From positions 47,352 through 111,351 of the IMG/VR virus record IMGVR_UViG_3300029249_000109: 64,000 nucleotides of DNA; one strand, given 5' to 3'. This stretch comes from a virus. The notes under the pieces are model-generated. The model saw nothing but the letters and a program-made list of their open reading frames with translations. It had not been told where the DNA came from and ran no database searches. Below are positions 30,250 through 63,587 of the stretch, one piece after another (position 1 is the stretch's first letter; each line of letters starts with the position of its first letter). The position numbers were made by a program, and so were the translations under genes.

Positions 30250-30333
30250 TATGCCGGTATCGCTCAGCGGCTAGAGCACTGGGTTTATACCCCTTGGTCC
30301 AGATAAGACAGAGGCGCGGGTTCGAGTCCTGCT
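30243..30333 (+). tRNA. tRNA-like gene with canonical acceptor, D and T arms but an aberrant anticodon region (possible UAU anticodon on a weak stem, or a 14-nt loop) and a 13-20-nt extra region
   Basis: Acceptor gccggta/taccggc, A73, encoded CCA, D-stem gctc/gagc, T-arm gcggg-ttcgagt-cctgc. Between them, ctgggtttataccccttggtccagataagacagaggc does not form a standard 5-bp stem with a 7-nt loop. Confidence 0.35.
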
Positions 30334-30375
30334 ACCGGCACCATTTTAGTAACATTTTGAAAGAAGGTATGAATC

Positions 30376-30630
30376 ATGGCAAATCTGAATATCAAAGAAA
30401 TCGTTGAATGGATGATTGAAAAAGCGAAAGATAAGGCTTCCGATAGCATCGCAGTCATTGATGAAGGAGAAATCGTTAAAGAGTTCGGAGTGGAGTCTGG
30501 ATGGCTTCAGAGCCATGGTCCAGAGATTTATCACGAGTGTGATCAGCACTCAGAAGTTTTGGACTCTTTGATTTACACTGGAAACGATAGAGATTATTGG
30601 TCTATTCAGTTTACTATTAACAAGGAGTAA
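30376..30630 (+). CDS. Hypothetical protein
   Basis: RBS gaaagaaggtatgaatc. Confidence 0.5.
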   Translation: MANLNIKEIVEWMIEKAKDKASDSIAVIDEGEIVKEFGVESGWLQSHGPEIYHECDQHSEVLDSLIYTGNDRDYWSIQFTINKE

Positions 30631-30636
30631 ATTAAA

Positions 30637-31329: not shown

Positions 31330-31540
31330 AGATTTATTGCTGGCAGTCTGCGCATCAGTTGTTTCGTTTTTGAGTCTCGATGTCATTTCTGAGAAACTTT
31401 TACGGCACATCTCACTTGTTCAAATGGCGACAGGAAGTATAAGTTCTCTTTACGGACGTGTCAGCGAGCTGGCCCTTTCGGCATCTGTAGCTCTGTCGCT
31501 TGCGATTGGAGTTGTAGTATATATTCTATTCAAAAATTAA
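31316..31540 (+). CDS. Small membrane protein
   Basis: Hydrophobic 74-aa ORF. Confidence 0.45.
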   Translation: MKKHKDLLLAVCASVVSFLSLDVISEKLLRHISLVQMATGSISSLYGRVSELALSASVALSLAIGVVVYILFKN

Positions 31541-31552
31541 AAGGAGGAACAA

Positions 31553-32464: not shown

Positions 32465-32553
32465 CCCCGTCGGGACGGAGACGTTAAACCCGTGTCCTGA
32501 GATCAACACAAGATCTAAAAACTGTGTGGCAGCTCGGAAAGACGAGCAAGTAT

Positions 32554-32636
32554 GTTTCGGTGCTGGAATCGGCAGACAGGGGAGTCTCAAAAACTTCTGC
32601 GAAAGCATGTGGGTTCAAGTCCCATCCGAAACACCA
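32554..32636 (+). tRNA. tRNA-Leu (anticodon CAA)
   Basis: Acceptor gtttcgg/ccgaaac, A73, CCA, anticodon stem ggagt/acttc with loop ctCAAaa, long variable arm, T-loop ttcaagt. Confidence 0.75.
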
Positions 32637-32756
32637 TGGGTGAGTTGCGTCGCCCAAAAATCTCCTTTTCCTCACAAATGCTTAGTGGCTCATGGGTTCC
32701 AGACATGAATCACCGTGACTGAACAAGTCGTAGCAGGTACGCAATCCTGCTTTTGA

Positions 32757-32839
32757 GCGGAAGTGGTGGAACGGCAGACACGCTGGTTTTAGGCACCAGT
32801 TCTTTACGAGTGAGGGTTCAAATCCCTTCTTCCGCACCA
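32757..32839 (+). tRNA. tRNA-Leu (anticodon UAG)
   Basis: Acceptor gcggaag/cttccgc, A73, CCA, stem ctggt/accag with loop ttTAGgc, long variable arm. Confidence 0.75.
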
Positions 32840-32911
32840 TCGAGAATGAGCATCACACATCATTCCCGTCCCTATAGCCGCTTTACCTGGTCGCAACAGG
32901 TAAGGCATTAT

Positions 32912-32983
32912 GCAACCATCGTATAGTTGGTTAGTACGTTTTGTTCTTGACAAAGAGGACGAGTTCGATTCTCGTTGGTTGCT
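32912..32983 (+). tRNA. tRNA-Lys (anticodon CUU)
   Basis: Acceptor gcaacca/tggttgc, stem ttttg/caaag with loop ttCTTga, T-arm acgag-ttcgatt-ctcgt, no encoded CCA. Confidence 0.65.
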
Positions 32984-33102
32984 CCGATGCCCGCTTATAG
33001 GGTCTCATTCCTCCTATTCGGGCTTTACCTCTTTTCTTCCTTGTTATTCCCGGCTCCATGGCACATGCTGTGGCAATAAGGCGTAGTAAGCCGGGCTCTT
33101 GT

Positions 33103-33177
33103 GCAGCGGTCGTATAACGGTTAGTACATCGTCCTTCCAAGTCGATGGCGTGGGTTCGACTCCCATTCGCTGCTCCA
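33103..33177 (+). tRNA. tRNA-Gly (anticodon UCC)
   Basis: Acceptor gcagcgg/tcgctgc, anticodon loop ctTCCaa, T-loop ttcgact, CCA. Confidence 0.65.
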
Positions 33178-33485
33178 TGGTGTGCGACGGTTTGAGACTC
33201 CTACATACAAATCCAGCCGGGTAAGTCCGTCCACAACCGGTGTAGGTAGACAGCTTTGCCCATTAGGTCTCTAACAAAATGGGGAACAGAAAATCAGTTG
33301 TTTCAGCTCGATCGGGGATTGGCCGTTCATTGGCAAACGACAGGCATCACACCGGTAAATGATGCTGAGCCAAATAAGAAGGGAAATAAGGTGCAAGCCG
33401 AGTAGCTGTCGGACGAATACTCTTCAGGTAGCCAGTAAACTGGAACGTAAAACGAATGTTGGCTGTTTCTGATTTTCTTTTATAT

Positions 33486-33561
33486 GCGACTGTAGTTCAA
33501 TTGGTAGAGCGTCGGATTTCCATTCCGAATGTTGCGGGATCGTACCCCGTCAGTCGCTCCA
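33486..33561 (+). tRNA. tRNA-Gly (anticodon UCC), second copy
   Basis: Acceptor gcgactg/cagtcgc, stem tcgga/tccga with loop ttTCCat, T-arm gcggg-atcgtac-cccgt, CCA. Confidence 0.7.
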
Positions 33562-33564
33562 TAT

Positions 33565-33650
33565 GCTACCGTGGTGGAATGGCAGACACCGGAGACTTAA
33601 AATCTCCTGTTGGCAACAACGTGCCCGTTCAAGTCGGGTCGGTAGCACCA
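33565..33650 (+). tRNA. tRNA-Leu (anticodon UAA)
   Basis: Acceptor gctaccg/cggtagc, A73, CCA, stem ggaga/tctcc with loop ctTAAaa, long variable arm tgttggcaacaacgt. Confidence 0.75.
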
Positions 33651-39379: not shown

Positions 39380-40615
39380 ATGTACGTTACTTATTGGAAT
39401 CCACCGAGAACAAGGCAGATTACGTTTGACGAAATCCTTAGCGGAGTCGTTGATGTGAATCAGTTGAAATATGCTGGCGATGAAACTTCTACTCGAACCG
39501 TACAGCGCGAGGGTTTGAATGATCGTTTAGTGGCTATCACAAATGTCACTAGTATGATCACACAGCTGACGGAATTTAATCAGAAATATGCTCGTCTTGA
39601 AGCAGTACATGACCTGTCGACGTATTACTACCACTTTGAAATCCCTAAGAAAACTGGTGGATTTCGACCGATTGATGCCCCGACAAACGAACTGAGTGAT
39701 GCGTTGGTTGAGTTGCGGACGCTATTAAAAAGTTTCATGATTGCTGATTATCACACGGCAGCACACGCATATATCAACGGGCGCGGCACTCTGAGTGCGA
39801 TTAAAAAGCATCAGGCGGGGCACAGATATACAGTAAAAGATCGCGAAACTGGAAAAGAAAAGATCGTCACTTATGAAAATAACTGGGCTGTCAAGTTTGA
39901 CTTTCATGGATTCTTTCCGAGTTCCACTCCTGAGTTTATCTACGGTATGTTCAGCAAGATTTATCCGTTTTCTCTTATTATGAAAGATCGAAATGGATAC
40001 AACCAGCTGACTAAAGCGATGCGCTTGTGCTTCTTGAACGGCGGTCTTCCGCAGGGAACGCCAATCAGTCCGTGGATCACGAACGTTATGATGATCCCGT
40101 TTGATTATATGTTAAACAAGAAGCTTTCTTACAAATATACCATGAAAGACGGCATTTCTCGCACTTTTACATATACCAGATATGCAGACGATATCACTAT
40201 CAGTTGTTATCTGAGTTTTGACCCGATGGAAATGCAGGATATTATCAAAGAGACGTTGGATGCAATCAATGCTCCGTTTACTTTGAATGAAGAAAAAACG
40301 CATTATGGCAATCGGCATTCGAGCGAAAACTGGATGCTCGGTCTGATGTGGAACGCCAATAACGATATCACAGTTGGATGGCGTAATTTTAAGGACTTCA
40401 AGAAGATGGCATCTAATTACATCGTCTGCAAGAAAGAAGGAAAAACGTGGGATCTTGAAGACCTGCAGCAGTTTAATGGCAAGTTGAATTACTACCGTAT
40501 GGTTGAAAAAGAATCAGTTGATGCGGTAATCTCTCGATACAATGAAAAATATCGTGTTGACATGATGGCAATGCTCAAAGCTGACTTAAAACCAAAAGAA
40601 GGAGTTGTTTTCTAA
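39380..40615 (+). CDS. Reverse transcriptase (retron/Abi/UG-like bacterial RT, RT domain only)
   Basis: KKTGGFRPIDAP (RT motifs 1/2), TAAHAYINGRGTLSAIKKH (matches the Ec86 retron DAAHGFVPGRSIITNAKKH region), LNGGLPQGTPISPWITNVMM (motif B, QGxxxSP) and YTRYADDITIS (YADD catalytic motif). Confidence 0.85.
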   Translation: MYVTYWNPPRTRQITFDEILSGVVDVNQLKYAGDETSTRTVQREGLNDRLVAITNVTSMITQLTEFNQKYARLEAVHDLSTYYYHFEIPKKTGGFRPIDAPTNELSDALVELRTLLKSFMIADYHTAAHAYINGRGTLSAIKKHQAGHRYTVKDRETGKEKIVTYENNWAVKFDFHGFFPSSTPEFIYGMFSKIYPFSLIMKDRNGYNQLTKAMRLCFLNGGLPQGTPISPWITNVMMIPFDYMLNKKLSYKYTMKDGISRTFTYTRYADDITISCYLSFDPMEMQDIIKETLDAINAPFTLNEEKTHYGNRHSSENWMLGLMWNANNDITVGWRNFKDFKKMASNYIVCKKEGKTWDLEDLQQFNGKLNYYRMVEKESVDAVISRYNEKYRVDMMAMLKADLKPKEGVVF

Positions 40616-43232: not shown

Positions 43233-43244
43233 AGGAGAATGAAA

Positions 43245-45317
43245 ATGTCTGATTTTAAGAAATTTCGTGCACTGCTGCAGGACCACTTTAATGAGATGGT
43301 GAAGAGTGGGAATCCACTGTTTATCACCGATGCAGACGAGGATGAACTGTACAATCTGTATCTCGACAGTTTCCCGGCCGGCACGAATGAGTTGTTCCGT
43401 AAGCGGCGCGAGTATGATTGCTCCTGCTGCCGCCGTTTTGTAAAGAATATCGGCAAGCTGGTGGCGTTTAACAAGAATTATAATTTGATTTCCATCTGGG
43501 ATTTCGATGCAAAGTCTGCCAAGTATCAGCCTGTTGTTGATGCGCTGGCTGCCTATGTAAAGAGCCGCGCCATTGTGAATCCATACTTTGTCAGCCGTAA
43601 TATGATCGGTTCTGGCGATATGTTCGGCACCGAGATGAACTACGAGTATGACGAAAACCACAAGGATGTGCATACTTGGGATCATTTCGCAGTCAAGATT
43701 CCGCAGCGTTTTATTATGCGGCCTGATGACGTGTCTACTAAGATGGCACAGTGGCGTGACTCCGCAAACGTGTTCAAGCGTTCTCTGGAAGGGCTAACCA
43801 TGGAGGCTGTTGATACTGTGCTGGAGCTGATTGCTCAGAATAGTCTGTATCGCGGCAAGGAGTTTGAGCGGTCTGTAAAGGAGTTTAAGCATGATAAGCT
43901 TGATTATGACAAGCTGTCTGTTAATGAAAAGCTTGCCTTTGTATGGCTTGCCCCTACGTATGCTACGGCGGCACAGCTTCGCATTCGTAACACCGCTATC
44001 GGCACCCTTCTTATCAATTTGAGTGAGGGCATGGATGTGGATTCCGCCGTTACCGCCTTTGAGAAGGTTGTTGCTCCTGCAAACTATAAGCGTCCCAAGG
44101 CGATTTTCACCAAGAAGATGCTGGAAGACGCACAGAAGACCGTTACCGAGCTGGGCTATATGAGCAGTCTGGGTCGTCGGTTTGCTACTCTGGACGATAT
44201 CACCGCCAATAATATCCTGTTCTGCAACCGGGATGCTGCCCCTCGTATTGCTGGTGCTACAAATCCGTTTGAAGCAATGGCTAAGACTGTTGCGATCGAT
44301 CCCAAGAAGTTTGGCCGCGCAGAGGAAATTGGCATCGACAAGTTCATCAAGGACGTGCTGCCGACTGCGACTGGGCTGGAGCTGTTCATGGAAAATCGTT
44401 TCGAGAAGAATATGATGTCTCTGATTGCGCCTCAGGATAAGAGTGCGCCGAGTATGTTCAAGTGGCCTAATGGTTTCAGTTGGGCATATACCGGCAATAT
44501 GGCAGACAGCGATATTCGCGAAAACGTTAAGGCTGCTGGCGGCAAGGTCGATGGCGTGCTGCGTTTTTCTATTCAGTGGAACGATAAGCCGGGCGAGTGG
44601 GATGAAAACGATGAGGATGCTCATTGCATTGAACCCGATAACAATCACATCTATTTCGGAAACTGTTGGAATCATTATACTGATGGCCGCCTGGATGTGG
44701 ATATCACTCATCCTAATCAGGGTAAGGCTGCGGTCGAAAATATTACATGGCCTGATATCAAAAAGATGAAGGAAGGCGAGTACAGCTTCTATGTGAGATG
44801 CTTTGCTAGTCGTGGCGGTAAAACTGGTTTCCGTGCTGAGATCGAATTCGATGGCAACATTTACTCGTTTAATTACGATAAGCCGCTACATCAGGCTCAG
44901 AGTGTCGCTGTGGCAAAAGTCATGCTGAAGGATGGTAAGTTCTCTATCAAGGAGCTGCTGCCCAGTTCTACCAGCACCCGCGAAATCTGGGGTGTGAATT
45001 CCAATCAGTTCGTACCTGTGTCTGTGGCGATGTATTCTCCGAACTACTGGGATGAACAGACTGGTAATGGTAATCGTCACTACTTCTTCATGCTCAAGGA
45101 TTGTGTCAACCCTGAAAAGCCCAATGGTTTCTACAATGAATTTCTGAAGGCGGAACTGTTACAGCATAAGCGAGTATTTGAGGCTCTTGGTTCTCAGATG
45201 GCGGTTCAGTCGGTAGATGACCAGCTGTCTGGCGTTGGCTTCTCTGAGACGAAGCATGATTCCTTTATTGTCAAGGTTCAGGGCGCTACTGAGAGAGTTC
45301 TGAAAGTGGTGATTTAA
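43245..45317 (+). CDS. Large hypothetical protein (about 690 aa)
   Basis: RBS aaaggagaatgaaa; no recognised motif. The long antisense ORF 43794..44711 is judged an artefact. Confidence 0.6.
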   Translation: MSDFKKFRALLQDHFNEMVKSGNPLFITDADEDELYNLYLDSFPAGTNELFRKRREYDCSCCRRFVKNIGKLVAFNKNYNLISIWDFDAKSAKYQPVVDALAAYVKSRAIVNPYFVSRNMIGSGDMFGTEMNYEYDENHKDVHTWDHFAVKIPQRFIMRPDDVSTKMAQWRDSANVFKRSLEGLTMEAVDTVLELIAQNSLYRGKEFERSVKEFKHDKLDYDKLSVNEKLAFVWLAPTYATAAQLRIRNTAIGTLLINLSEGMDVDSAVTAFEKVVAPANYKRPKAIFTKKMLEDAQKTVTELGYMSSLGRRFATLDDITANNILFCNRDAAPRIAGATNPFEAMAKTVAIDPKKFGRAEEIGIDKFIKDVLPTATGLELFMENRFEKNMMSLIAPQDKSAPSMFKWPNGFSWAYTGNMADSDIRENVKAAGGKVDGVLRFSIQWNDKPGEWDENDEDAHCIEPDNNHIYFGNCWNHYTDGRLDVDITHPNQGKAAVENITWPDIKKMKEGEYSFYVRCFASRGGKTGFRAEIEFDGNIYSFNYDKPLHQAQSVAVAKVMLKDGKFSIKELLPSSTSTREIWGVNSNQFVPVSVAMYSPNYWDEQTGNGNRHYFFMLKDCVNPEKPNGFYNEFLKAELLQHKRVFEALGSQMAVQSVDDQLSGVGFSETKHDSFIVKVQGATERVLKVVI

Positions 45318-46006: not shown

Positions 46007-46210
46007 GTGAAAGATAATGAAGCGGCTGGCATTGTACGATTCAGAGATTTGAAAGAACCCACTGACGAACATATGGGCATTCTTTTTGGAGACGGAAAGA
46101 TTTTGTGCTTGTGCTGCGGCGGGTGGGTTCCTCTTGGAGAATATGAGATCATTGAGGATTACAATGGCTTTGAATATGTTGAAGAAAGTTTAATGGAGGC
46201 GTTACGATGA
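46007..46210 (+). CDS. Small Cys-containing protein (GTG start)
   Basis: RBS gagaggtggttagtc; CLCCGG motif. Confidence 0.45.
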   Translation: MKDNEAAGIVRFRDLKEPTDEHMGILFGDGKILCLCCGGWVPLGEYEIIEDYNGFEYVEESLMEALR

Positions 46211-47310
46211 AAATTGTCGAAAGTTCTGGCCGTTTACATCTGTATGGCGACGATATGCAGGCTTACGATCAGATCCCAGCTGGCACATATGACATTTGTT
46301 TCGCTAAGATGACCGGTTTTTATTTGACTCGTCGTCCAGATATGGTTGTCGATGAAAAGGTGTACGGTGTTGCCAATGAGAAGGCAGCCAAGGTAATGAG
46401 TACGTTTAAGGTGTTTACTCGGAATCTTGGTGTGATCCTCAGCGGTGATAAAGGCATTGGTAAGTCTCTGACTGCTAAAATGATTGCTAAGACTGCGGTT
46501 GATGCAGGCTATCCTGTTATTTTGGCAAACGAGTACATTCCTGGTATTGCTAGTTTTATTGAATCCATTACGCAGGAAGTTATGGTTCTGTTTGATGAGT
46601 TTGATAAAACTTTCCGTTCTACAGACAACGAAAATCCGCAGGATACTATGCTGAGTCTGTTTGACGGAACTACGACTGGAAAGAAGTTGTTTGTTGTTAC
46701 TTGCAATCAGTTGCGTAGTCTGAACGATTATCTTGTAAACCGTCCGGGTCGCTTTCATTATCATTTTCGTTTCGATTATCCGCAGGCTGAAGAGATTCGT
46801 ACTTATCTACAGGATAAGCTTGATCCAAAGTATTATGGCGAAATTGAATCTGTTATCCAGTTCTCTTCTCGCGTCACTTTGAATTACGATTGTCTGCGAT
46901 CCATCGCTTTTGAGTTGAATCTCGGTACCTCATTTAAGGATGCCATCATGGATCTGAATATCATCAATCTGGACGACATGGCCTATACCGTCACGGCAGT
47001 AACTGAAAGTGGCAAAAAGTCTGTTAGCCATGGTAGTTATGATTTGTTTAATGGCGGTCATGATTATTCTGATTACTTCACCCCAATTGTGGGCAAGGAC
47101 AGTTATTTGATTCGGTTCAATACGGATAATATTGAATTCGATCAGAAGACTGGAAAATGTATGATTTCTGGTGAGAATCTCAGAGTCGAAAACCCGTATG
47201 ACCGAGATTATGAGTGGGAAAAGGCAGATTACGCTGAATTTGAAAAGGAAACGGTTAAGTACATTATGTTTGAACGTCGTGGTGGGCGTAGCCTACATTA
47301 CGCGGTTTAA
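46207..47310 (+). CDS. AAA+ ATPase
   Basis: GDKGIGKS (Walker A), VLFDEFDK (Walker B) and RPGRF (sensor/Arg-finger-like). Confidence 0.7.
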   Translation: MKIVESSGRLHLYGDDMQAYDQIPAGTYDICFAKMTGFYLTRRPDMVVDEKVYGVANEKAAKVMSTFKVFTRNLGVILSGDKGIGKSLTAKMIAKTAVDAGYPVILANEYIPGIASFIESITQEVMVLFDEFDKTFRSTDNENPQDTMLSLFDGTTTGKKLFVVTCNQLRSLNDYLVNRPGRFHYHFRFDYPQAEEIRTYLQDKLDPKYYGEIESVIQFSSRVTLNYDCLRSIAFELNLGTSFKDAIMDLNIINLDDMAYTVTAVTESGKKSVSHGSYDLFNGGHDYSDYFTPIVGKDSYLIRFNTDNIEFDQKTGKCMISGENLRVENPYDRDYEWEKADYAEFEKETVKYIMFERRGGRSLHYAV

Positions 47311-47321
47311 GGAGGCTCAAT

Positions 47322-48149
47322 ATGGTCAAAGCAAATCATTATGAAATCAGTTCTTTTCCTGATGGCACCCCGCTGATCAAGAAGGATCTGACCATCAATT
47401 ATCTCAATGTAATCAGCATTGTCTGGACGTTTGAATCCATGGCCGAGCTTCCCACGGTCATTATGATCGCGAAGGACGCAAAGGATAACGGGGCAGAAGT
47501 CGAGCTGTTTATGCCGTATATTCCGAACGCTCGTATGGATCGCGCCTATCACGACGAAGACGTGTTCACTCTCAAGTGGTTTGCTGACGAGATCAACCGG
47601 TGTGAATTCAGCCGCGTTGTCGTTTTTGATCCTCATAGTGATGTGGCTCCCGCTCTGATCGATCGGTGTGAAGTACGCACTCCGATTCGTGAGATCTGTC
47701 AGGTAATCGAAGAAAGCAAGCCTGATGTAATCTACTTCCCAGATGCAGGAGCAATGAAACGATACGAGGAAACTGTTCACTGGGCACTCGATCGTGTGGG
47801 TTGTAAGGCTTACATCATTCACGGTGACAAAAAGCGTGAGTGGAAGACCGGCAAGATTCTTGGTTTGGACGTCACGGGATATCCTCCAAAGAAAGGCAAG
47901 GTCCTTATGATCGATGATATCTGCTCTTACGGTGGCACTATGTTTTATTCGGCTGAAAAGCTGAAAGAACTGGACGTAGGTGATATCGACATGTATGTCA
48001 GTCATTGTGAGAACAGTATTCTGGATAAAGAACGCGGCCATCTGTTTGATGATCCGGAGCTGATTCATATGGTCTATACCACGGACAGTATCTTCACCGG
48101 CCATCACGACAAGATCACTGTTTTGGAACACAGGTGGGATGAGGATTGA
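47322..48149 (+). CDS. Ribose-phosphate pyrophosphokinase (Prs)-like phosphoribosyltransferase-fold enzyme; candidate ADP-ribose pyrophosphokinase of a NARP1-type NAD+ reconstitution pair
   Basis: GKVLMIDDICSYGGT is the PRPP-binding motif. Sits next to the NAMPT-like gene. Confidence 0.65.
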   Translation: MVKANHYEISSFPDGTPLIKKDLTINYLNVISIVWTFESMAELPTVIMIAKDAKDNGAEVELFMPYIPNARMDRAYHDEDVFTLKWFADEINRCEFSRVVVFDPHSDVAPALIDRCEVRTPIREICQVIEESKPDVIYFPDAGAMKRYEETVHWALDRVGCKAYIIHGDKKREWKTGKILGLDVTGYPPKKGKVLMIDDICSYGGTMFYSAEKLKELDVGDIDMYVSHCENSILDKERGHLFDDPELIHMVYTTDSIFTGHHDKITVLEHRWDED

Positions 48150-48150
48150 T

Positions 48151-48303
48151 ATGAAATTTAATAAAGAAGAAATCTATAACGCACTTGATATTCTGACTTG
48201 TCAAATCCAAGAGTCTGACGAGCTCGGATGGTGTTGTAAGCAGGAACTGAAAAATGTCCTTGACGATTACTTCCGACTAATTGAAAAGGAGAATATGAAA
48301 TGA
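48151..48303 (+). CDS. Small hypothetical protein (50 aa) between the Prs-like and NAMPT-like genes
   Basis: RBS gggatgaggattgat; ATGA overlap with the downstream gene. Confidence 0.4.
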   Translation: MKFNKEEIYNALDILTCQIQESDELGWCCKQELKNVLDDYFRLIEKENMK

Positions 48304-49778
48304 TCAATATTAACCCGATGCTGCTGTGTGACTTTTACAAGACAACGCACAGTAAGCAGTTTCCGGCCGGCACTACCAAGCTGGTCAGTTACTTCACGCC
48401 TCGTATGAGTCGGTTGGATGGCGTGGATGAAGTTGTTGTGTTTGGCGTTCAGGCATTTTGCAAGGATTATCTGGTGCAGTATTTCAACGACAACTTTTTC
48501 GACGAACCAAAAGAAATGGTCGTTCCTCAGTATAAGCGATATCTGGATGCGACCATTGGTAAGGATGCTTACGATCTGAGCAAGATTGCAGCGCTACATG
48601 ATCTGGGATATCTTCCTGTTGAAATCAAGGCACTGCCAGAAGGCACTCGTTGCCCCATCCATGTGCCGTTCCTTGAGATGAGCAATACGCACCCTGATTT
48701 CGCATGGGTTCCGCAGTTCCTTGAATCCTTTATGAGCTCTGAGCTGTGGCATCCGATGATTTCTGCAACGGTCGGAACTCTGTATCGCGATATCGTGGAC
48801 AAGTATTACGATGAAACAGTGGAGGATGGCGTGCCACATGCTCGTGCTCTGGGTGATTTCAGTTTCCGTGGTCAGGAGTGTATGCAGTCGGCAGTTAAGT
48901 CAAGCGCCGGTTGGTGCTTGAGCTTTCTGAATACGGCTACTGTCCCTGCGATTCCGTATCTGGAAGAAATGTATCGTTGCAATTGTGAAGAAGAGCCCGT
49001 TGCATTCGGCGCTGTTAGTACCGAGCATAGTGTGATGTGTTCCAACTTCGCAGTCGATGGCGATGAGATCACTTTCATCCGCCGGGCGCTGACTGAGCTG
49101 TATCCCAATATGAATTTCAGCATGGTGTCTGACTCCTACGACTATTGGAATCTGGTTGATAACATTCTACCGCAGCTCAAGGATGAGATCATGGCACACA
49201 ATGGCACACTGCTGATTCGTGGCGATTCTGGCGACCCGGTCGAAATTGTTACGCAGACGGTTTATCATCTGTGGGATATCTTCGGCGGCACGGTCAACAG
49301 CAAGGGTTATAAGGTGCTCGACCCTCATGTAAAGGCTCTGTATGGCGACTCTATCACTGTGCAACGCTGTGAAAAGATTTATGCCGAGCTCAAAGCACAC
49401 GGTTTTGCCTGCAACAATGTCAGTCTTGGCGTTGGTTCTTTCTCCATGCAGTGCATCGAGCAGAATGGTCAGTTGAAGCCGTTCACTCGCGATACTTTTG
49501 GCATGGCAGTCAAGGCAACTTATGGCGTGGTCAATGGCAAGGAGATTCAGATCTTCAAGGACCCCAAGACCGACACCGATCACTTTAAGAAGAGTCTGAA
49601 GGGTATGTGTTATGTCACTAAGGATGATTCTGGAAAGCTGGTTTGTACTGATGGCCTGATGGATCACGCTGCTCATTCTGACGGAAACATGCTGCAGCCT
49701 GTATTCCGCAATGGCGCGATGATTAAAGAATACAGTTTGAAGGAAGTCCGCGACCGACTGTGGGGAGGGAAGTTCTGA
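48300..49778 (+). CDS. nadV: Nicotinamide phosphoribosyltransferase (NAMPT/NadV)-like enzyme; candidate nicotinamide-ADPR transferase
   Basis: 492 aa of NadV-like length. The N-terminus MININPMLLCDFYKTTHSKQFP resembles phage NadV proteins. Confidence 0.65.
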   Translation: MININPMLLCDFYKTTHSKQFPAGTTKLVSYFTPRMSRLDGVDEVVVFGVQAFCKDYLVQYFNDNFFDEPKEMVVPQYKRYLDATIGKDAYDLSKIAALHDLGYLPVEIKALPEGTRCPIHVPFLEMSNTHPDFAWVPQFLESFMSSELWHPMISATVGTLYRDIVDKYYDETVEDGVPHARALGDFSFRGQECMQSAVKSSAGWCLSFLNTATVPAIPYLEEMYRCNCEEEPVAFGAVSTEHSVMCSNFAVDGDEITFIRRALTELYPNMNFSMVSDSYDYWNLVDNILPQLKDEIMAHNGTLLIRGDSGDPVEIVTQTVYHLWDIFGGTVNSKGYKVLDPHVKALYGDSITVQRCEKIYAELKAHGFACNNVSLGVGSFSMQCIEQNGQLKPFTRDTFGMAVKATYGVVNGKEIQIFKDPKTDTDHFKKSLKGMCYVTKDDSGKLVCTDGLMDHAAHSDGNMLQPVFRNGAMIKEYSLKEVRDRLWGGKF

Positions 49779-50251
49779 TGGCTGGTGTAATCAAAGAAGG
49801 CAACGTATTTGATTCTGACGCAGATATTATTTGCCATCAGGTGAATTGTCAGGGTGTAATGGGATCAGGCGTTGCTAAAGAAGTTCGCGAACGGTTTCCG
49901 AATGTGTATGAGGAATATCACACTTACTGCGAAACCAACAAGGACTATCCGGGACGAATGCTTGGTATCGCTCAGATGGTGCCAGTCGATGAAAAAGGTT
50001 CACGATGGATCATCAATTGTTTTGGTCAGAACAGTTATGGATATGACGGAAAGCAGTACACGTCTGTTGGCGCACTGATGGAGGCATTTCAAGAAGTTGC
50101 AAAATTCGCTAAGATGACTGGAACTAAAGTGGCTATGCCATATGGAATCGGCTGTGTTCGTGGTGGTGCTGATTGGGAGACCGTCAAGAAGATCATTGAT
50201 GTTACATTTCAAGACGTAGATGTTGAGCTATGGAGATTGAAGGAGAAGTAA
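49778..50251 (+). CDS. Macro domain protein (ADP-ribose / O-acetyl-ADP-ribose binding or hydrolase)
   Basis: ADIICHQVNCQGVMGSGVAKEV fits the macro-domain core NAAN...GGGV. Start coupled to the NAMPT stop (tgATGg). Confidence 0.65.
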   Translation: MAGVIKEGNVFDSDADIICHQVNCQGVMGSGVAKEVRERFPNVYEEYHTYCETNKDYPGRMLGIAQMVPVDEKGSRWIINCFGQNSYGYDGKQYTSVGALMEAFQEVAKFAKMTGTKVAMPYGIGCVRGGADWETVKKIIDVTFQDVDVELWRLKEK

Positions 50252-50252
50252 T

Positions 50253-51011
50253 ATGCGCAATTATGAATTTGATGCATCAAAGACAAAAGATGAAATCATT
50301 ACGTGGATTCGGAATTATTTCCGCAAGAATGGTCCTGACTGCAATGCTGTGGTTGGTATTTCTGGCGGCAAGGATTCCAGTATTGTGGCAGCTTTGTGCT
50401 GTGAAGCGCTTGGTAATGGTCGAGTGATCGGCGTTCTGATGCCGCAGGGGGTGCAGGACGACATTGATGTAGCGCGGGATCTGGTCAAGCATCTGGGTAT
50501 CAAGTCGTTCGAGGTCAATATTGCGGAAACTGTGAATGCGTTACTGGCTAGGGGTCGAATTGCTGGTCTGTGTGATTCCAAGCAGGCTCGTGTAAATCTG
50601 CCGGCACGAATCCGTATGGCAACCCTGTTCATGGTATCTCAGAGTATGAATGGGCGGGTAGCGAACACCTCTAATTTTTCGGAGGACTATGTTGGATTTG
50701 CCACTCTTTTTGGAGACGGAGCTGGTCAGTTTAGCCCTCTTGGCAAGCTAACTGTTACCGAAGTAAAGGCTATCGGTCGTGAACTGGGTCTCCCTGAAAA
50801 GTTTATTGAGAAAGCACCTGCTGATGGTCTGACCGGTAAGACTGATGAAGACAACTTCGGCTTTACCTATGATTTCCTTGACAAGTATATCCGTACTGGA
50901 GATTTCGGGGGCGATACTGCAACCGCAGCCAAGATTGATCGGATGCATGATGCAAACACGTTCAAGCTATTGCCGATGTCGGTATATAATTCAAACCCGT
51001 TTGACTGGTGA
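50253..51011 (+). CDS. nadE: NH3-dependent NAD+ synthetase (NadE)
   Basis: VVGISGGKDSSIVAAL is the PP-loop SGGxDS signature. Confidence 0.75.
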   Translation: MRNYEFDASKTKDEIITWIRNYFRKNGPDCNAVVGISGGKDSSIVAALCCEALGNGRVIGVLMPQGVQDDIDVARDLVKHLGIKSFEVNIAETVNALLARGRIAGLCDSKQARVNLPARIRMATLFMVSQSMNGRVANTSNFSEDYVGFATLFGDGAGQFSPLGKLTVTEVKAIGRELGLPEKFIEKAPADGLTGKTDEDNFGFTYDFLDKYIRTGDFGGDTATAAKIDRMHDANTFKLLPMSVYNSNPFDW

Positions 51012-51034
51012 GTCTAATTAAGGAGGATTTAGCA

Positions 51035-51604
51035 ATGGAAAAGACAAAAGTCGATATCTTGGTTGTTGTTGATATGCAGAACGATTTCGTAACCGGCGCT
51101 CTTGGTACTCCTGAAGCTCAAGCTATTGTGCCAAAGGTTGTGAAGAAGATCAAAGGCTGGAGCGGTAAGGTTCTGTATACCAGAGACACTCACCATGAAA
51201 ACTATCTCGAAACTCAGGAAGGTAAACATCTCCCTGTGAAGCACTGTTTAGAGGAGACGTGGGGGTGGCAGTTGATCGATGAGGTTGACGCGACAATCAC
51301 TGACGAGATGTGGGAATCTGACAATCCCATCTACGACAAAGAAGTGTTCGGCTCTTATTATATGATGCAGGACTTACGAGAAACTCTTCTTTGGTATTCT
51401 GACGTGGAAATTAACTCAATCACACTGGTCGGACTTTGCACGGACATCTGTGTTATCTCCAATGCAATTATGCTGAAGAATGTGCTCCATGAGGTTCCTA
51501 TCATTGTGGATGCAAGCTGCTGTGCTGGTGTAACTCCTGAGTCTCATAAGAACGCACTGGCTGCCATGAAGATGTGTCAGATTGAAATTGTAAACGAGGA
51601 ATAA
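51035..51604 (+). CDS. Isochorismatase-family cysteine hydrolase, likely nicotinamidase (PncA-like)
   Basis: VVVDMQNDF and LVGLCTDICV (catalytic Cys). RBS aaggaggatttagca. Confidence 0.65.
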   Translation: MEKTKVDILVVVDMQNDFVTGALGTPEAQAIVPKVVKKIKGWSGKVLYTRDTHHENYLETQEGKHLPVKHCLEETWGWQLIDEVDATITDEMWESDNPIYDKEVFGSYYMMQDLRETLLWYSDVEINSITLVGLCTDICVISNAIMLKNVLHEVPIIVDASCCAGVTPESHKNALAAMKMCQIEIVNEE

Positions 51605-52591: not shown

Positions 52592-52857
52592 TTATGTTTG
52601 TAATTGATGAAACGACTCCCAAGATTGCAATTCCTGACGGATATTTTGTGTGTCTACCAACTGGAGCCACGGACGATTATCCGGGTCTTGGCATTTTTTT
52701 CTCTAAAGACGGAAAAACAGTTGATTGGAATGACCTAATTTCAATCACTGAATACAATTCTGTATTTAAAAATATCCAAACGGTTGGCTTTCGGCAGGGG
52801 CAAGAAAACTATGTCGCCGCAATTCGTTTTGAAGATGGAAACATTATTGGAGAATGA
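52588..52857 (+). CDS. Hypothetical protein
   Basis: ORF only. Confidence 0.45.
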   Translation: MIMFVIDETTPKIAIPDGYFVCLPTGATDDYPGLGIFFSKDGKTVDWNDLISITEYNSVFKNIQTVGFRQGQENYVAAIRFEDGNIIGE

Positions 52858-52870
52858 GGGGTATGTGCAA

Positions 52871-53674
52871 ATGGGAGTTTCAAAAAATGTTTATAAAATT
52901 GCAAAAGCAAAGAAAATTTCTTTGAAAAAATTAAGCCGTATGGTTGATATGCCATACACGACTTTGTATAACGAAATAAAACGTGATACAAATGTTAAAA
53001 ATATAGTTCGAATCGCAGAAGCTCTAGAGTGTAGTGTATACACTTTATATGACGATAAAGCAACGGATGAACTGATGGACAAGTTACTTGGTAAAAAGGG
53101 CTGTGTTGAAATTTTGCCTATTAAAATGAATGATGGGAATATCAAAGACGAAGCACATCAACTGATTGATAAATATTTCATGCCAGCTAAAGCAATTATT
53201 GTAAAGGATTTTCTTAATACATACGGATTCTGGGACGCTCCGGCTTCTACCAAATATCATGGCAACCACCCCGGCGGCTTAGCTGAACACAGTCTGGCAG
53301 TTGCAAAAAATCTTTTGATGTTAACAGAGAAGCTTGGTTTGAAGTGGGATAATCCCGGGTCTCCAGTTGTTGTTGGTCTGCTACATGATGTTTGTAAAAT
53401 GGATCAATACAAGTTGATTAGCGCAGAAAATGGTTATCAGTACGCTTATACAAATGATTCAATCTACAGTCATCACGGTGAAAAATCTATTTGTATGCTG
53501 GCGAGTTGTGTCACCTTGACCCAAGAGGAAATTGCTTGTATCCGCTGGCACATGGGCGCATATGAGACCGATACAAACGAGTGGAAATATTATGGCAACG
53601 CCATTGCAAAATATCCAAATGTGCTCTGGACGCACACGGCGGACATGATGGCAAGTCATATCGAAGGAGTGTAA
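52871..53674 (+). CDS. Xre-type HTH domain fused to an HD-domain phosphohydrolase
   Basis: N-terminus LKKLSRMVDMPYTTLYNEIKRD...IVRIAEALECSV (HTH_XRE-like). C-terminus HGNHPGGLAEHSLAV...VVGLLHDVCK (H...HD motif). Confidence 0.55.
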   Translation: MGVSKNVYKIAKAKKISLKKLSRMVDMPYTTLYNEIKRDTNVKNIVRIAEALECSVYTLYDDKATDELMDKLLGKKGCVEILPIKMNDGNIKDEAHQLIDKYFMPAKAIIVKDFLNTYGFWDAPASTKYHGNHPGGLAEHSLAVAKNLLMLTEKLGLKWDNPGSPVVVGLLHDVCKMDQYKLISAENGYQYAYTNDSIYSHHGEKSICMLASCVTLTQEEIACIRWHMGAYETDTNEWKYYGNAIAKYPNVLWTHTADMMASHIEGV

Positions 53675-56193: not shown

Positions 56194-56306
56194 TGAATTA
56201 TATTTTGAGATTATTATCTCGATTTATTGATTTCTGCCTTGATTGGGCATGGTTAATTGTTCCGATTTGGGCATTTTGTTTTATTGCTGTGATGTTAATA
56301 ATCTAA
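56190..56306 (+). CDS. Small membrane protein (38 aa)
   Basis: Translates to MMNYILRLLSRFIDFCLDWAWLIVPIWAFCFIAVMLII; ATGA coupling. Confidence 0.35.
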   Translation: MMNYILRLLSRFIDFCLDWAWLIVPIWAFCFIAVMLII

Positions 56307-56326
56307 AGCGTAAAAAGGTGGTAAAA

Positions 56327-57130
56327 ATGACACGAGAAGAATTACAACGTATCATTGCGAGTGAACCGTATGATTTTCTACGTACTGATCCTCACCTTGG
56401 TAAGCATTTGATGTTTCTGACTATTGGCGGCAGCCATGCTTATGGAACGAATGTAGCAGGATCAGATGTTGATATTCGCGGTGTCGCTTTGAACTCCAAA
56501 GAGGATCTACTCGGGTTGGGTGAGTTTGAACATCATGTAGATACGGTGACGGATACAACGGTATTTAGTTTCAATAAAGCTGCGAAGTTATTGTGTAGCG
56601 GGAATCCAAACATGTTAGAACAACTCGGTAACGCAGATGAACTAGTTATCGATTATCATCCTACTACTAGACTGTTGACGGAAAATAAAAATTTATTCCT
56701 GTCGAAAAGGGTAATCTATTCATTTGGTGGATTTGCAGGAAAGCTGATCAAAGAAGCAGATGCTAAATGGCGTGCGTACCTGTATGAAGTTGAAGAATCT
56801 GGCGTGAATCCAAATGTTAAACCGTATATTCCATATGGAGAAAAACGTTTCAATAAGACTGTAATGAATGCGATTCGTTTATATCATATGTTGTTTGACA
56901 TTTTAGAAAAATGTGAAATCAACACTTATCGTGGGGCCGAGCACGATGTTTTGATGCAGATTCGAAACAGTGACTACGACTATGAAGAGTTGCGTAACCA
57001 TGTGATTCCTGTGTATGAGGCTAGACTGCAAGTTGACAAAAAGGAAAGTGAATTGCCAAATCACGTCAATATGAAGTTGGTCAATGAGTTAGTTGCGGCT
57101 ATCAATGAGCAGGCGCTAAAGGTGGTGTAA
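56327..57130 (+). CDS. Pol-beta-superfamily minimal nucleotidyltransferase (KNTase/Lnu/ANT-like)
   Basis: LTIGGSHAYGTNVAGSDVDIRGV fits G[GS]x9-13Dh[DE]h. RBS aaaggtggtaaaa. Confidence 0.6.
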   Translation: MTREELQRIIASEPYDFLRTDPHLGKHLMFLTIGGSHAYGTNVAGSDVDIRGVALNSKEDLLGLGEFEHHVDTVTDTTVFSFNKAAKLLCSGNPNMLEQLGNADELVIDYHPTTRLLTENKNLFLSKRVIYSFGGFAGKLIKEADAKWRAYLYEVEESGVNPNVKPYIPYGEKRFNKTVMNAIRLYHMLFDILEKCEINTYRGAEHDVLMQIRNSDYDYEELRNHVIPVYEARLQVDKKESELPNHVNMKLVNELVAAINEQALKVV

Positions 57131-60304: not shown

Positions 60305-61375
60305 ATGGATATTAGTCAGCAGCTTTACAACGCAGAACAGAAAAACCTTTTTATAGAAGATTACATTGTCACAACAGGAAAATCAAAGCAATGTAATGAA
60401 ATCGAGAAGAGAAAGAGGGCTGTTAAGTTTCTGCGTGGGGTATCAAGTTTCGAATACCAGCACAACAAAGACTTTTGTACGTTTAAGATTGGCAGCGAAG
60501 AAATGAGATCCGTTTATGTTGGATGGCTTAACAATTGTTCGGAATCTACGGTTCGAATTGCCATATCAATTCTTCGTCAATATGTAAAATGGTGCTATAA
60601 AAAAGAGATCATTGATTATGCAACATATGCTAGTCATGCCTTGATTTCAAAGAATTCGGAACTATATATAAAGAGCGATACGGAAATGTCAATTCCAACA
60701 AAAATCACTTCTCCAGTGTTTTTAGCACAAAATATATCAGCGATGGAGAACGAATCAAGTGTTGGAGATGATTTTGTTTTTAAAACCGAAAATGGTTACT
60801 TTAACTATTTAAACGTCTTATTTGAAGACGATAAATATACAATGCCGGCTGCCGTTATGACTTTGTTCTACTACGGATTTTCAATTGAAGAAATACGTAG
60901 TCTGTACAGAAGAGATGTCGATTCTTCTGAAAGACGCATTCGAAACGTTATAATCGAAAACGAAACGGCAATGAAGCTGATTGAACGTGCAAAAAATTTG
61001 GATTCTTATGTCATTATTAAAGAAGATGGATATAAGAGAACAGAATATTTCATGGACTCAACACGTCTGATTCGCAATACTAGCAGAGGATGTGGAATGG
61101 TTTCCGAAGACCAAAAGATACCGAAAGAGTATTGCCACAAAATGAGGCAGTATCAGCTGATGGCATCAAAAAAACTTCCTCGAAATTCGAAATATAAAAA
61201 CGTCTTCATAAAGATGCCAACCGTGCAAAAACTTAGAGATTTTTATAAAATCTATAGAGACGAGCAGGAATTAGGCATCGAAGAGGTTAGACGTCGTTTC
61301 AACAATGGAACGTATAATGTGCAATTTGACTTTTATGCATATAAGATAATGGCATCTAAAGCGCGTGATATATAA
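60305..61375 (+). CDS. Tyrosine recombinase/integrase (second one; AT-rich gene)
   Basis: LFYYGFSIEEIRSLYRRDVD (box I Arg region), CHKMRQYQL (HxxR) and C-terminal FDFYAYKIM (Tyr). Confidence 0.55.
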   Translation: MDISQQLYNAEQKNLFIEDYIVTTGKSKQCNEIEKRKRAVKFLRGVSSFEYQHNKDFCTFKIGSEEMRSVYVGWLNNCSESTVRIAISILRQYVKWCYKKEIIDYATYASHALISKNSELYIKSDTEMSIPTKITSPVFLAQNISAMENESSVGDDFVFKTENGYFNYLNVLFEDDKYTMPAAVMTLFYYGFSIEEIRSLYRRDVDSSERRIRNVIIENETAMKLIERAKNLDSYVIIKEDGYKRTEYFMDSTRLIRNTSRGCGMVSEDQKIPKEYCHKMRQYQLMASKKLPRNSKYKNVFIKMPTVQKLRDFYKIYRDEQELGIEEVRRRFNNGTYNVQFDFYAYKIMASKARDI

Positions 61376-62053: not shown

Positions 62054-62128
62054 AGCTGGTGTAGCTCAGAGGCAGAGCACGGTACTTGTAATGCCGGGGT
62101 CGAGATTCCGAAATTCTCCACCAGCTCC
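62054..62128 (+). tRNA. tRNA-Thr (anticodon UGU)-like with an atypical T-arm (T-loop tccgaaa, mismatch in the T-stem); could also be a phage attP core
   Basis: Acceptor gctggtg/caccagc, D-arm tagctcagaggcagagc, stem cggta/tgccg with loop ctTGTaa, encoded CCA. Confidence 0.5.
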
Positions 62129-62180
62129 ATTGAACGGCGGTAGCCGCATTAAAGATTACATATTTTAAAGGAGTAAGATT

Positions 62181-62822
62181 ATGACTACTGAAACTATGAC
62201 AATTCATCGCGGTCTGGCAGAGTTGAAGGTTATTGAAGATCGCATCAACAAGCTTCTTCGTGAAGCTAAGTTTTGTGCACCAGCTAAAAAGAGTATGAAG
62301 AAGTTGGATGGTGTGGATATCGATGAGTTTAAAACAAATGCTCAGTCCGTTTTCGATAAGATCACTGCACTGATTTCAAAGCAGGCAGCACTTAAGCGAG
62401 CGATTTCCGAATCCAACGCAAAGACTTATGTTACTGTGGCCGGGGTCAATTTCACCGTTGCAATGGCAATTTGGATGAATCAGCATGGCATTGATTTCCA
62501 GAGTGCACTGCTTAATGTAATCGATCGCCAGTACTCTAATGCCACTGCCGTAATTGAAAATGCAAACGCTCGTCTGAGTGATCGTGCTGACGCTTTTGTG
62601 AGCGCTACGAATTCCGCTTCAGATAAGAACAACATGGATGCTGAGACTCTGAAGGAAATCCGCCAGGATTACATGGATCGCGAGACTATGGCCCTGGTTG
62701 ATGGTATCGATGTTAAGAAGGTAAAGAGCGAACTGGCTGATAAGATCGATAAGTTCAAGGCCGAAGTCGATGCGGCACTGTCTGCTTCTAATGCTGTGAC
62801 TGAGATCACGATTGAATACTAA
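62181..62822 (+). CDS. Hypothetical protein with GC3-rich codon usage
   Basis: RBS aaaggagtaagatt; 213 aa, helical/coiled-coil character. Confidence 0.55.
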   Translation: MTTETMTIHRGLAELKVIEDRINKLLREAKFCAPAKKSMKKLDGVDIDEFKTNAQSVFDKITALISKQAALKRAISESNAKTYVTVAGVNFTVAMAIWMNQHGIDFQSALLNVIDRQYSNATAVIENANARLSDRADAFVSATNSASDKNNMDAETLKEIRQDYMDRETMALVDGIDVKKVKSELADKIDKFKAEVDAALSASNAVTEITIEY

Positions 62823-63129
62823 GTTGTAACACCGCAAGGTGTCTACATAATCACTGTTTATCGAAAATGACAAACCGTAATAGTTCGCTTTTGTTTGTAG
62901 GGACTTGCTTAAGCGAAATCAAAATATAAAAAGCTAACACCTATATAAAAGTGGCCTCATAAGCCTCCAAGATGAAAAAGCAAGTTTATATAAATAATAC
63001 TTGACTTTCTGATTTGCTAAATGGCTAAAGCGACAGACAGAAAATCTGTAACTGTAGGTTCGAATCCTGCATCAGAAAACAAAATCGATCAGTAAGCGGA
63101 ATCAACCCAAGGGAAGATACGAGCTGATC

Positions 63130-63210
63130 AAATTCATCCGGAAAGGTTAAAGTTTACGATTAAAGGTTAAAGGTTGAAAGTTCAAAGCTTAAACTTCTAG
63201 CTAAAGATTA
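63130..63210 (+). repeat. Degenerate tandem 8-9-bp repeats (aaaggttaa/aaggttgaa/aagttcaaa)
   Basis: ggaaaggttaaagtttacgattaaaggttaaaggttgaaagttcaaagcttaaacttc; iteron-like. Confidence 0.4.
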
Positions 63211-63352
63211 ACGTATAACGAATACAGGTCAAAGAATATTAAAATCCATGAGTTTGTGTTTGTGGATCAATTACGTAAGTCCCGTCGTTTACCACATGGC
63301 TGATAAATGGTGAACGCCTTGGCAGGGGCGTAACAATACCTGCCGTTTATAT

Positions 63353-63426
63353 GGTTCGGTAGCTCAGAAGGATAGAGCACTAGCCTGTCACGCTAGGGGT
63401 CGTGGGTTCAATCCCCATCCGAATCG
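63353..63426 (+). tRNA. tRNA-Asp (anticodon GUC)
   Basis: Stem ctagc/gctag with loop ctGTCac, T-arm gtggg-ttcaatc-cccat, acceptor ggttcgg/ccgaatc. Confidence 0.8.
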
Positions 63427-63431
63427 CTTAT

Positions 63432-63505
63432 GGTCCTATAGTTCAGTTGGTTAGAACGAGAGACTGTTAATCTCTATGTCACCTGTTCGAGTCAGGTTAG
63501 GACCT
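63432..63505 (+). tRNA. tRNA-Asn (anticodon GUU)
   Basis: Acceptor ggtccta/taggacc, stem agaga/tctct with loop ctGTTaa, T-arm acctg-ttcgagt-caggt. Confidence 0.8.
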
Positions 63506-63511
63506 CTTCGT

Positions 63512-63587
63512 GGTTCTGTAGCTCAGTCGGTAGAGCAGGGGACTGAAAATCCCCGTGTCGCCTGTTCAATTCAGGCCGGAACCACCA
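63512..63587 (+). tRNA. tRNA-Phe (anticodon GAA)
   Basis: Acceptor ggttctg/cggaacc, stem gggga/tcccc with loop ctGAAaa, encoded CCA. Confidence 0.8.

Follow-up and report, generated by a model that had tools for sequence, protein, structure and literature searches.

Depletion of NAD+ is among the commonest bacterial antiphage strategies, and the reconstitution of NAD+ by phages (NARP1, NARP1-AP, NARP2 and NARP3) has become an active field. In NAD+ reconstitution pathway 1 (NARP1), Adps uses ATP to convert ADP-ribose (ADPR) to ADPR-pyrophosphate (ADPR-PP), which Namat joins to nicotinamide, yielding NAD+; Adps enzymes comprise a phage clade apart from Prs, 97% of its members adjoin a Namat, and assays of validated Adps for the synthesis of phosphoribosyl pyrophosphate (PRPP) yielded no product (10.1101/2024.02.11.579819). 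In NARP1-AP, described in a January 2026 preprint, the macro-domain phosphatase Adpp additionally turns ADPR-1''-phosphate, the product of the RES-type defense aRES, into ADPR and counters aRES; the macro gene is present in ~15% of NARP1 phages (10.64898/2026.01.28.702374). Here we analyze a 64,000-nucleotide stretch of the virus record IMGVR_UViG_3300029249_000109 (record positions 47,352 to 111,351; hereinafter the window, with positions counted from its first nucleotide) that carries, at 47322-51604 on the + strand, five substantial open reading frames (ORFs) and a small one. All five substantial ORFs, noticed already in a preliminary description of the locus, show strong family matches, namely, to Adps, Namat, macro-domain proteins, NadE and PncA.

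The gene identities, the substitutions in the pyridine pocket of the Namat-like enzyme, the covariation of these substitutions with PncA and NadE, and the distribution of the module are direct observations. From these, we consider it reasonably likely that the cluster is a phage-borne, "deamidated" form of NARP1-AP that operates as a linear route, with the substrates and products deduced from the sequences. The more specific proposition, which we place just on the favorable side of even, is that the Namat-like protein is a nicotinate ADP-ribosyltransferase making nicotinic acid adenine dinucleotide (NaAD) in one step, so that its combination with PncA, Adps and NadE would represent a fourth kind of NAD+ reconstitution pathway in phages and also a hitherto unrecognized ADPR-recycling salvage pathway of Clostridia, often encoded beside nrtR, in which PncB and NadD are replaced.

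Enzymes of the operon and the remodeled pyridine pocket

The Namat-like protein (PF04095 and PF18127; phrog_448, E 2e-163) scores 452 bits against the crystal structures of SpβL1 Namat (9w5x/9w5w) and 340 bits against 9ke8, compared with 187 bits against Xcc Nampt and ~180 bits against human Nampt, and nests within the Namat radiation in a tree rooted on the Xcc enzyme. Identity as a true Nampt, that is, a NARP2 component, was rejected because the bit scores favor Namat and no Nmnat was found in the window; the preliminary description had applied the NARP2 label to a NadV/Prs pair, which is a misnomer given that NARP2 consists of Nampt and Nmnat (10.1101/2024.02.11.579819).

The nicotinamide pocket of SpβL1 Namat is formed by F189, R192, D215, A242, R306, D13' and Y15' (PMC12774641). 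Five of these seven residues are retained in the window protein, D215 being replaced by Ala (A213) and A242 by Ser (S240), the latter located 3 positions ahead of the catalytic His (H243 in the window protein); in a further pocket change, G213 gives way to Asn (N211), and the alignment shows all other residues of the catalytic core to be conserved. In human NAMPT, D219, the equivalent of D215, hydrogen-bonds the amide of nicotinamide and defines specificity, and human NaPRTase has at this position a Ser that confers specificity for nicotinate (PMC4442680). Ser at the amide-binding position is seen also in one of the bacterial clades of the variant (KTST). Replacement of this residue in SpβL1 Namat (D215A) lowers NAD+ synthesis from nicotinamide 8.1-fold (PMC12774641). 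The three pocket positions switch jointly, from G/D/A to [N/K/R/G]/[A/S]/S: position 242 is Ser in all 21 representatives of the Ala class and in every Ala/Ser-type locus except one, which has Thr, and is Ala in all Asp/Glu-type sequences as well as in the Xcc Nampt outgroup. The window enzyme is predicted to join nicotinate to ADPR-PP, producing NaAD. The PncA-like hydrolase and NadE recognized in the preliminary description stand, but its view of the locus as a standard NARP1 that uses nicotinamide and is supplemented by additional genes does not fit the pocket changes.

The Adps-like protein belongs to phrog_619 (E 1.4e-58), the PHROG family that also includes the validated Adps of Vibrio phage Gary, with which it shares 34% identity (E 3e-27, 94 bits); the best cellular Prs in PDB scores 46.7 bits. 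It does not reach the threshold of any Prs model in NCBIfam (for TIGR01251, 69 bits against a cut-off of 113) and is nearer to the validated Adps, on which grounds a housekeeping Prs identity was rejected. In line with the preliminary description, bit scores and PHROG families assign both members of the pair to the NARP1 lineage rather than to housekeeping Prs and Nampt. The protein contains the previously noticed motif MIDDICSYGGT, and the motifs PYIPNARxDR, DPHS and DDICSxGGT are common to it and the Adps partners of Asp-type Namats. It is predicted to pyrophosphorylate ADPR to ADPR-PP.

NARP1-AP is recognized by a PF01661, PF14519 or PF20016 protein encoded no more than two genes away from Adps and Namat, and in the window, a PF01661 gene (35 bits, cut-off 22) lies directly 3' of namat. 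Its product matches phrog_335 ("phosphatase"; E 3e-42, 146 bits), a profile to which Gary Adpp scores 171 bits over a matching region; the two proteins are 24% identical. The PDB matches include the DarG macro domain (E 1e-10), ahead of yeast Poa1p (E 2.5e-6), and the predicted function is that of an ADPR-1''-phosphate phosphatase supplying ADPR to Adps; the earlier suggestion that the macro domain handles ADPR has since gained a precedent in the three-gene form published as NARP1-AP (10.64898/2026.01.28.702374). NadE (PF02540, E 6e-54; TIGR00552, 183 bits against a cut-off of 64) contains, again as previously noted, SGGKDSS; it is a single-domain protein without a glutaminase domain, its top PDB matches are NH3-dependent NadE enzymes, and it is predicted to convert NaAD to NAD+. 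The PncA-like protein (PF00857, E 1.7e-25), whose profile has the pyrazinamidase/nicotinamidase of P. horikoshii (1ilw, E 4e-20) as its top PDB match, retains the Asp-Lys-Cys triad (D22, K111, C148) and the Asp-His-His metal site (D60, H62, H79), both invariant in the family alignment, and is predicted to hydrolyze nicotinamide to nicotinate and NH3.

Pocket state and gene neighborhood in phages and Clostridia

We compared 320 loci that contain a Namat-family gene with 7-8 kb of flanking sequence, in which the neighbors were scored by tblastn; the viral contigs were gathered with the window protein, the Phass-1 Namat, a PncA profile and an Asp-type Namat profile, and the bacterial loci were drawn from genomes and assemblies. 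PncA and NadE are both present in 143 of the 145 viral loci of the Ala type, and one of them in the other 2; the 85 bacterial loci of the Ala/Ser type include 60 with both genes, 24 with one, and a single short contig with none. Neither gene was detected near any of the 90 Namats of the Asp/Glu type. When the sequences are clustered at 70% identity, the Ala/Ser type forms 23 clusters, of which 20 have both genes and 3 have one, and the acidic type forms 46, all of them without either gene. The association holds across changes of gene order (the human-gut phage Phass-1 has pncA-adps-namat-x-nadE) and down to 33% identity. Given its recurrence in more than 140 viral and 85 bacterial loci, the cluster is no chance juxtaposition, and the occurrence of the Asp loss and the two other pocket changes only beside PncA and/or NadE points to a single, obligately deamidated route. 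A separate Namat clade has Glu in place of the Asp (GSET/GGET) and is paired with Adps, never with PncA or NadE (L083, L084, L279, L283-L286, L289, L303, L305, L315, L317, L322 and L337).

Viral loci centered on PncA come in two types. In 74 of 80, PncA is accompanied by Adps, Namat of the Ala type and NadE, and in some cases also by a macro gene; in the remaining 6, among them Sinorhizobium phage Phosso (L004), it is combined with PncB, mostly also with NadE and at times with an NMNAT-like gene, and Adps and Namat are absent. Such classical Preiss-Handler sets, consisting of a PncA-like protein and PncB, are found in Phosso and in loci L158-L160, L170, L174 and L175; they resemble a further phage route to NAD+, one that is not named among NARP1-3 in the NARP literature that we found.

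The bacterial operons present the same replacement on the chromosome. In C. acetobutylicum, the gene order is nrtR-pncA-pncB-nadD-nadE (PMC2330246). In many other Clostridia, it is pncA-adps-namat-nadE, with namat of the variant class and often with nrtR before or after, such that adps and the variant namat occupy the place of pncB and nadD, whose products convert nicotinate to NaAD. This substitution is the strongest argument of our analysis that the variant pair does an equivalent job by way of ADPR-PP. Roughly half of the bacterial loci include a linked nrtR, the predicted effector of NrtR being ADPR (PMC2330246). No PncB- or NMNAT/NadD-like match was obtained by tblastn (the NMNAT query being from a phage) in the 64-kb window, ~80 kb of the genome lying outside it, and the sole nucleotidyltransferase found in the window is of the RlaP type. 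Nor was a PncB-like match detected in any viral or bacterial locus that combines Adps with Namat of the Ala/Ser type; an NMNAT-like match was found in just one of these loci, the viral L165, and is weak (24% identity).

The 120 best database homologs of the Namat-like protein have the Ala state (NTAT or NTAS) wherever the motif is readable, and their named sources are Lachnospiraceae, Clostridiales or Clostridium assemblies. A genome scan recovered the operon in isolates including C. beijerinckii, C. intestinale, C. manihotivorum, Dysosmobacter segnis, Lachnospiraceae bacterium A4 and Thomasclavelia cocleata; it is surrounded by ordinary chromosomal genes (ABC transporters, SecDF, radical-SAM enzymes), and its proteins are 64-67% (Namat), 62% (NadE), 52-56% (PncA) and 41-44% (Adps) identical to those of the phage. 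This common chromosomal operon was not mentioned in the preliminary description. Macro or PARG genes are frequent in the variant operons of both phages and bacteria. In the clostridial loci L179 (13574-14419), L252 and L255, a microbial PARG (PF10021) takes the place of the macro domain of the Poa1p type; L179 has a glutamine-dependent NadE, and L252 and L255 have no NadE match. The PARG-bearing versions suggest that different sources of ADPR feed one pathway.

In the neighbor-joining tree, rooted as above on Xcc Nampt, the variant class lies inside the Namat radiation, with phage and bacterial sequences interleaved; because the root has the G/D/A state, the acidic form appears to be ancestral, the switch having occurred once or twice. 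Judging from the sequences, the phage operon and the chromosomal pncA-adps-namat-nadE(-nrtR) operons of Clostridia share ancestry, the module having apparently moved between Clostridia and phages, and the phage host is probably a gut clostridial bacterium.

A predicted route through nicotinate and its alternatives

The linear pathway that we envisage would start with a host NADase that splits NAD+ into nicotinamide and ADPR or ADPR-1''-phosphate. Where the 1''-phosphate is present, the macro protein would strip it, releasing ADPR, which the Adps-like enzyme would convert to ADPR-PP at the expense of ATP, and PncA would turn nicotinamide into nicotinate and NH3. The Namat-like enzyme, with its pocket remodeled from G/D/A to N/A/S, would combine nicotinate and ADPR-PP directly into NaAD, and the NH3-dependent NadE would complete the cycle by converting NaAD, with NH3 and ATP, to NAD+. 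Our searches of the accessible literature returned no description of the one-step formation of NaAD from nicotinate and ADPR-PP, or of a NARP1 variant with a nicotinamidase, NadE, NaAD or nicotinate. The phage operon most likely serves to maintain the NAD+ supply in the course of infection and, by analogy with the characterized systems, also under attack by NAD+-depleting defenses.

The same biochemistry might, alternatively, serve general NAD+ supply, the operon being an auxiliary metabolic module copied from a clostridial host and not specifically a counter-defense device. The residence of the operon on many clostridial chromosomes, among ordinary genes and often beside nrtR, is consistent with such a role, and no defense or antidefense gene was identified next to the operon in the window; nevertheless, all tested Adps/Namat systems overcome NAD+-depleting defenses, rebuilding NAD+ from ADPR pays only after NAD+ has been cleaved, and an Adpp-type macro gene has so far been explained solely as a counter to aRES. 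We regard this purely metabolic interpretation as possible although rather unlikely.

The main rival on the chemistry itself is a PRPP-based Preiss-Handler hybrid, in which the Prs-like enzyme makes PRPP, the NadV-like enzyme with its Asp-to-Ala change makes nicotinic acid mononucleotide (NaMN), NadD of the host converts NaMN to NaAD, and the phage NadE finishes the synthesis, ADPR being no substrate at all. NadD is present in the hosts, and the pocket switch, along with the linkage to PncA and NadE, is equally compatible with a PRPP donor. Moreover, Namat has been reported to use PRPP in vitro, and NCBI labels the bacterial homologs "nicotinate phosphoribosyltransferase", a name given generically to the family. 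The hybrid is further consistent with the state of the adenine selectivity clamp, which in Namat comprises a stacking Arg/Lys in the selectivity clamp loop and, in the selectivity clamp helix, the signature GSXΦXΦXΦTRD, in which residues 3 and 7 are aromatic. R38 (equivalent to R40 of SpβL1), F381 (F392) and TRD are retained in the window protein, but the clamp is altered in its helix, which reads GSFSMQC-IEQNGQLKP-FTRD against GSFTYQY-NTRD in SpβL1; an insertion of 9-40 amino acids characterizes all members of the NTAT clade, from phages as well as from bacteria. The full signature is kept, however, in sister clades of the variant, namely, GSYTYQYNTRD in the GTAT clade (Clostridium) and GAYTYQYVTRD in the RTAT clade (Phass-1), both with the loop Arg/Lys, so that in the aligned sequences of these clades, the pyridine side of the pocket is the sole change. 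The hybrid is also at odds with the grouping of the Prs-like protein with validated Adps, a non-PRPP producer, and gives no rationale for the linkage to macro, PARG and the ADPR-sensing NrtR. Furthermore, some of the phage loci with PncB (L159, L160 and Phosso) bring their own adenylyltransferase, whereas among the ~150 viral loci with Adps and Namat of the Ala type, there is none apart from the weak match in L165. Taken together, these features make the PRPP route unlikely.

Least plausible is the reading of the preliminary description, that a nicotinamide-using NARP1(-AP) and an independent PncA/NadE branch boosting the deamidated salvage of the host would run in parallel and feed both amidated and deamidated routes: all five families are indeed present, SpβL1 Namat D215A retains some activity with nicotinamide, and PncA and NadE occur also in phages without Adps and Namat, but the Namat-like enzyme lacks the amide-binding Asp, the joint switch at G213, D215 and A242, only beside PncA and/or NadE and with no acidic locus having either, would be left unexplained, PncA and Namat would compete for nicotinamide, and the parallel branch would still depend on PncB and NadD of the host.

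Several considerations temper the case for the deamidated ADPR-based pathway. The activity ascribed to the Ala/Ser class is a prediction from sequence, and the antidefense role is assigned by analogy. The change of Y396 (position 7 of the clamp signature) to Cys in the window protein, followed by the 9-residue insertion I386-P394, renders the clamp non-canonical, so that the predicted preference for ADPR-PP is open to more doubt here than for the GTAT and RTAT clades, and the PDB matches of NadE do not discriminate between NaAD and NaMN as the substrate. With one or two origins of the switch, the covariation reflects few independent events followed by long-term retention; the monophyly of the Ala/Ser class has a bootstrap support of 37/100, which rises to 84/100 without the Phass-1 clade. 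The tblastn detection of neighbors was confined to ±7-8 kb, and NadE is non-adjacent in 19 of the 85 bacterial loci; part of the loci represent one contig retrieved twice, making the cluster counts the fairer measure. Finally, the route costs at least 1 ATP more than NARP1, without a demonstrated advantage.

If the proposed pathway is real, it involves a new enzyme specificity, the formation of NaAD from nicotinate and ADPR-PP, and a three-residue specificity switch that is directly testable by mutagenesis, and represents a counter-defense pathway adapted to hosts with nicotinate-based NAD metabolism. Hundreds of clostridial genes annotated as "nicotinate phosphoribosyltransferase" or "ribose-phosphate pyrophosphokinase" would then have to be reassigned to ADP-ribose recycling, with consequences for the metabolic models of abundant gut bacteria.

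Operon layout, genomic setting and relation to described systems

The genes of the operon are co-directional, in the order adps-like, small ORF, namat-like, macro, nadE, pncA, and the ends of neighboring ORFs overlap or almost abut (Table 1). Shine-Dalgarno motifs are present 5' of the starts that were inspected: AAGGAGG (47322, where it lies 8 nucleotides 5' of the adps ATG, and 51035), AAGGAG (48300) and GGGGAGGG (49778); the macro gene likely starts at ATG 49778 and pncA at ATG 51035.

Table 1. Features of the operon in the window (aa, amino acids)
Feature	Position	Strand	Basis
Adps-like (Prs-fold) enzyme, 275 aa	47322..48149	+	phrog_619, similarity to Gary Adps
Small ORF, 54 aa (50 aa from ATG 48151)	48139..48303	+	no family assignment
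Namat-like ADPR-transferase variant, 492 aa	48300..49778	+	similarity to SpβL1 Namat, phrog_448
Codons N211-T212-A213 (aligned with G213-T214-D215 of SpβL1 Namat)	48930..48938	+	alignments
Codon S240 (equivalent to SpβL1 A242)	49017..49019	+	alignments
9-aa insertion I386-P394, adenine "selectivity clamp" helix	49455..49481	+	alignment with SpβL1
Macro-domain protein, putative Adpp/Poa1p type, 163 aa if started at GTG 49760 (probable start ATG 49778, giving 157 aa)	49760..50251	+	PF01661, phrog_335
NH3-dependent NadE, 252 aa	50253..51011	+	PF02540, TIGR00552
PncA-type nicotinamidase, 198 aa if started at GTG 51008 (probable start ATG 51035, giving 189 aa)	51008..51604	+	PF00857

The small ORF, which the preliminary description omitted, has no Pfam, NCBIfam or PHROG match. 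It occupies a variable slot between adps and namat, 154 bp apart in the window, and is found in 9 of 83 closely related phage loci. Across these 83 loci, in which Namat is at least 90% identical, the gap between adps and namat ranges from 154 to 1621 bp, that between namat and macro is -15 or ~+207-238 bp, and that between nadE and pncA is 0-25, 320-418 or 1259 bp. Such slots could house accessory antidefense genes, comparable to RyDEP in the NARP1 operon of DyoEdafos. A scan of the small ORF in the window and of the extra ORFs of the related locus L002 found no RyR/RyDEP-like family; it did reveal an RNA-ligase-like ORF 5' of adps in L002, along with weak matches to PHROG families of function-unknown and DNA-binding proteins. 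Scans for promoters and terminators between 45 and 53 kb of the window yielded sites no more numerous than in shuffled sequence and are therefore uninformative.

The window derives from a large phage, with 14 tRNA genes, PhoH, an exonuclease and RNA-repair genes; near-identical IMG/VR contigs are ~140-150 kb long, and megablast of GenBank retrieved a single related phage record, the unannotated MT835544. The tRNA genes form two blocks (29211-33650 and 62055-63587), near which RNA-repair-type genes encode the RlaP nucleotidyltransferase (56243-57130) and an HD/HTH protein (52784-53674). Immediately upstream of the operon, the + strand encodes a conserved phage protein of 692 amino acids (43239-45317; function-unknown phrog_1735, E 1e-255) and an AAA/STAND-like ATPase (46207-47310; phrog_2376), which is found also 5' of adps in L002, there with the RNA-ligase-like ORF in between. 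A reverse transcriptase (39380-40615, +; PF00078 RVT_1, E 2e-13; phrog_2825 and phrog_1423) could be part of a diversity-generating retroelement or of another retroelement. A protein with integrase-type N-terminal domains (60305-61375, +; MrpR_N_CB and Phage_int_SAM_5) adjoins a tRNA block and is unexpected for a phage that in other respects resembles a large lytic-type one.

Among the described systems, NARP2 (Nampt and Nmnat, phage KVP40) and NARP3 (PnuC and NadR; PMC13464706) share with the window operon the restoration of NAD+ by phage-encoded enzymes, but the enzymes and intermediates differ, both being based on nicotinamide mononucleotide, and no Nmnat, NadR or PnuC homolog was detected in the 64-kb window; the possibility that NARP3 is an earlier description of the present system was rejected, the two being unrelated. 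The NrtR-regulated prs-nadV operons of γ-proteobacteria (PMC2330246) present a closer parallel, with a chromosomal pair of a Prs paralog and a NadV-like enzyme under an ADPR-sensing regulator, and bacterial NARP1 activity, assayed with nicotinamide, has been demonstrated for Paenibacillus foliorum (PMC12774641). By their published descriptions, both these operons are set apart from that of the window, with no linkage to PncA or NadE reported.

The nearest relatives are NARP1 and NARP1-AP. With NARP1 (Osterman et al.), the window operon has in common the adjacent genes of the Adps and Namat families, the catalytic core with R38 and F381, and the predicted conversion of ADPR to ADPR-PP; it differs in the Ala, Ser and Asn at the positions of D215, A242 and G213, in the Tyr-to-Cys change and the insertion in the clamp, in the company of PncA and/or NadE that the variant class keeps, and in the predicted product, which is NaAD and not NAD+. 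The macro gene within the operon, of the same phrog_335 as Gary Adpp and resembling yeast Poa1p, recalls NARP1-AP, although the order is adps-namat-macro instead of adps-macro-namat, the similarity to Gary Adpp is low, as detailed above, and the predicted pathway is deamidated. The other half of the putative pathway has its counterpart in the Preiss-Handler operons (pncA-pncB-nadD-nadE; PMC2330246), which likewise have PncA as the entry and NadE as the exit, nicotinate and NaAD as intermediates, and, in bacteria, a link to NrtR. In the window, however, Adps and the Namat variant stand in for PncB and NadD, which proceed from nicotinate through NaMN to NaAD with PRPP and ATP, and ADP-ribose would be the donor of the ribosyl-adenylate moiety.

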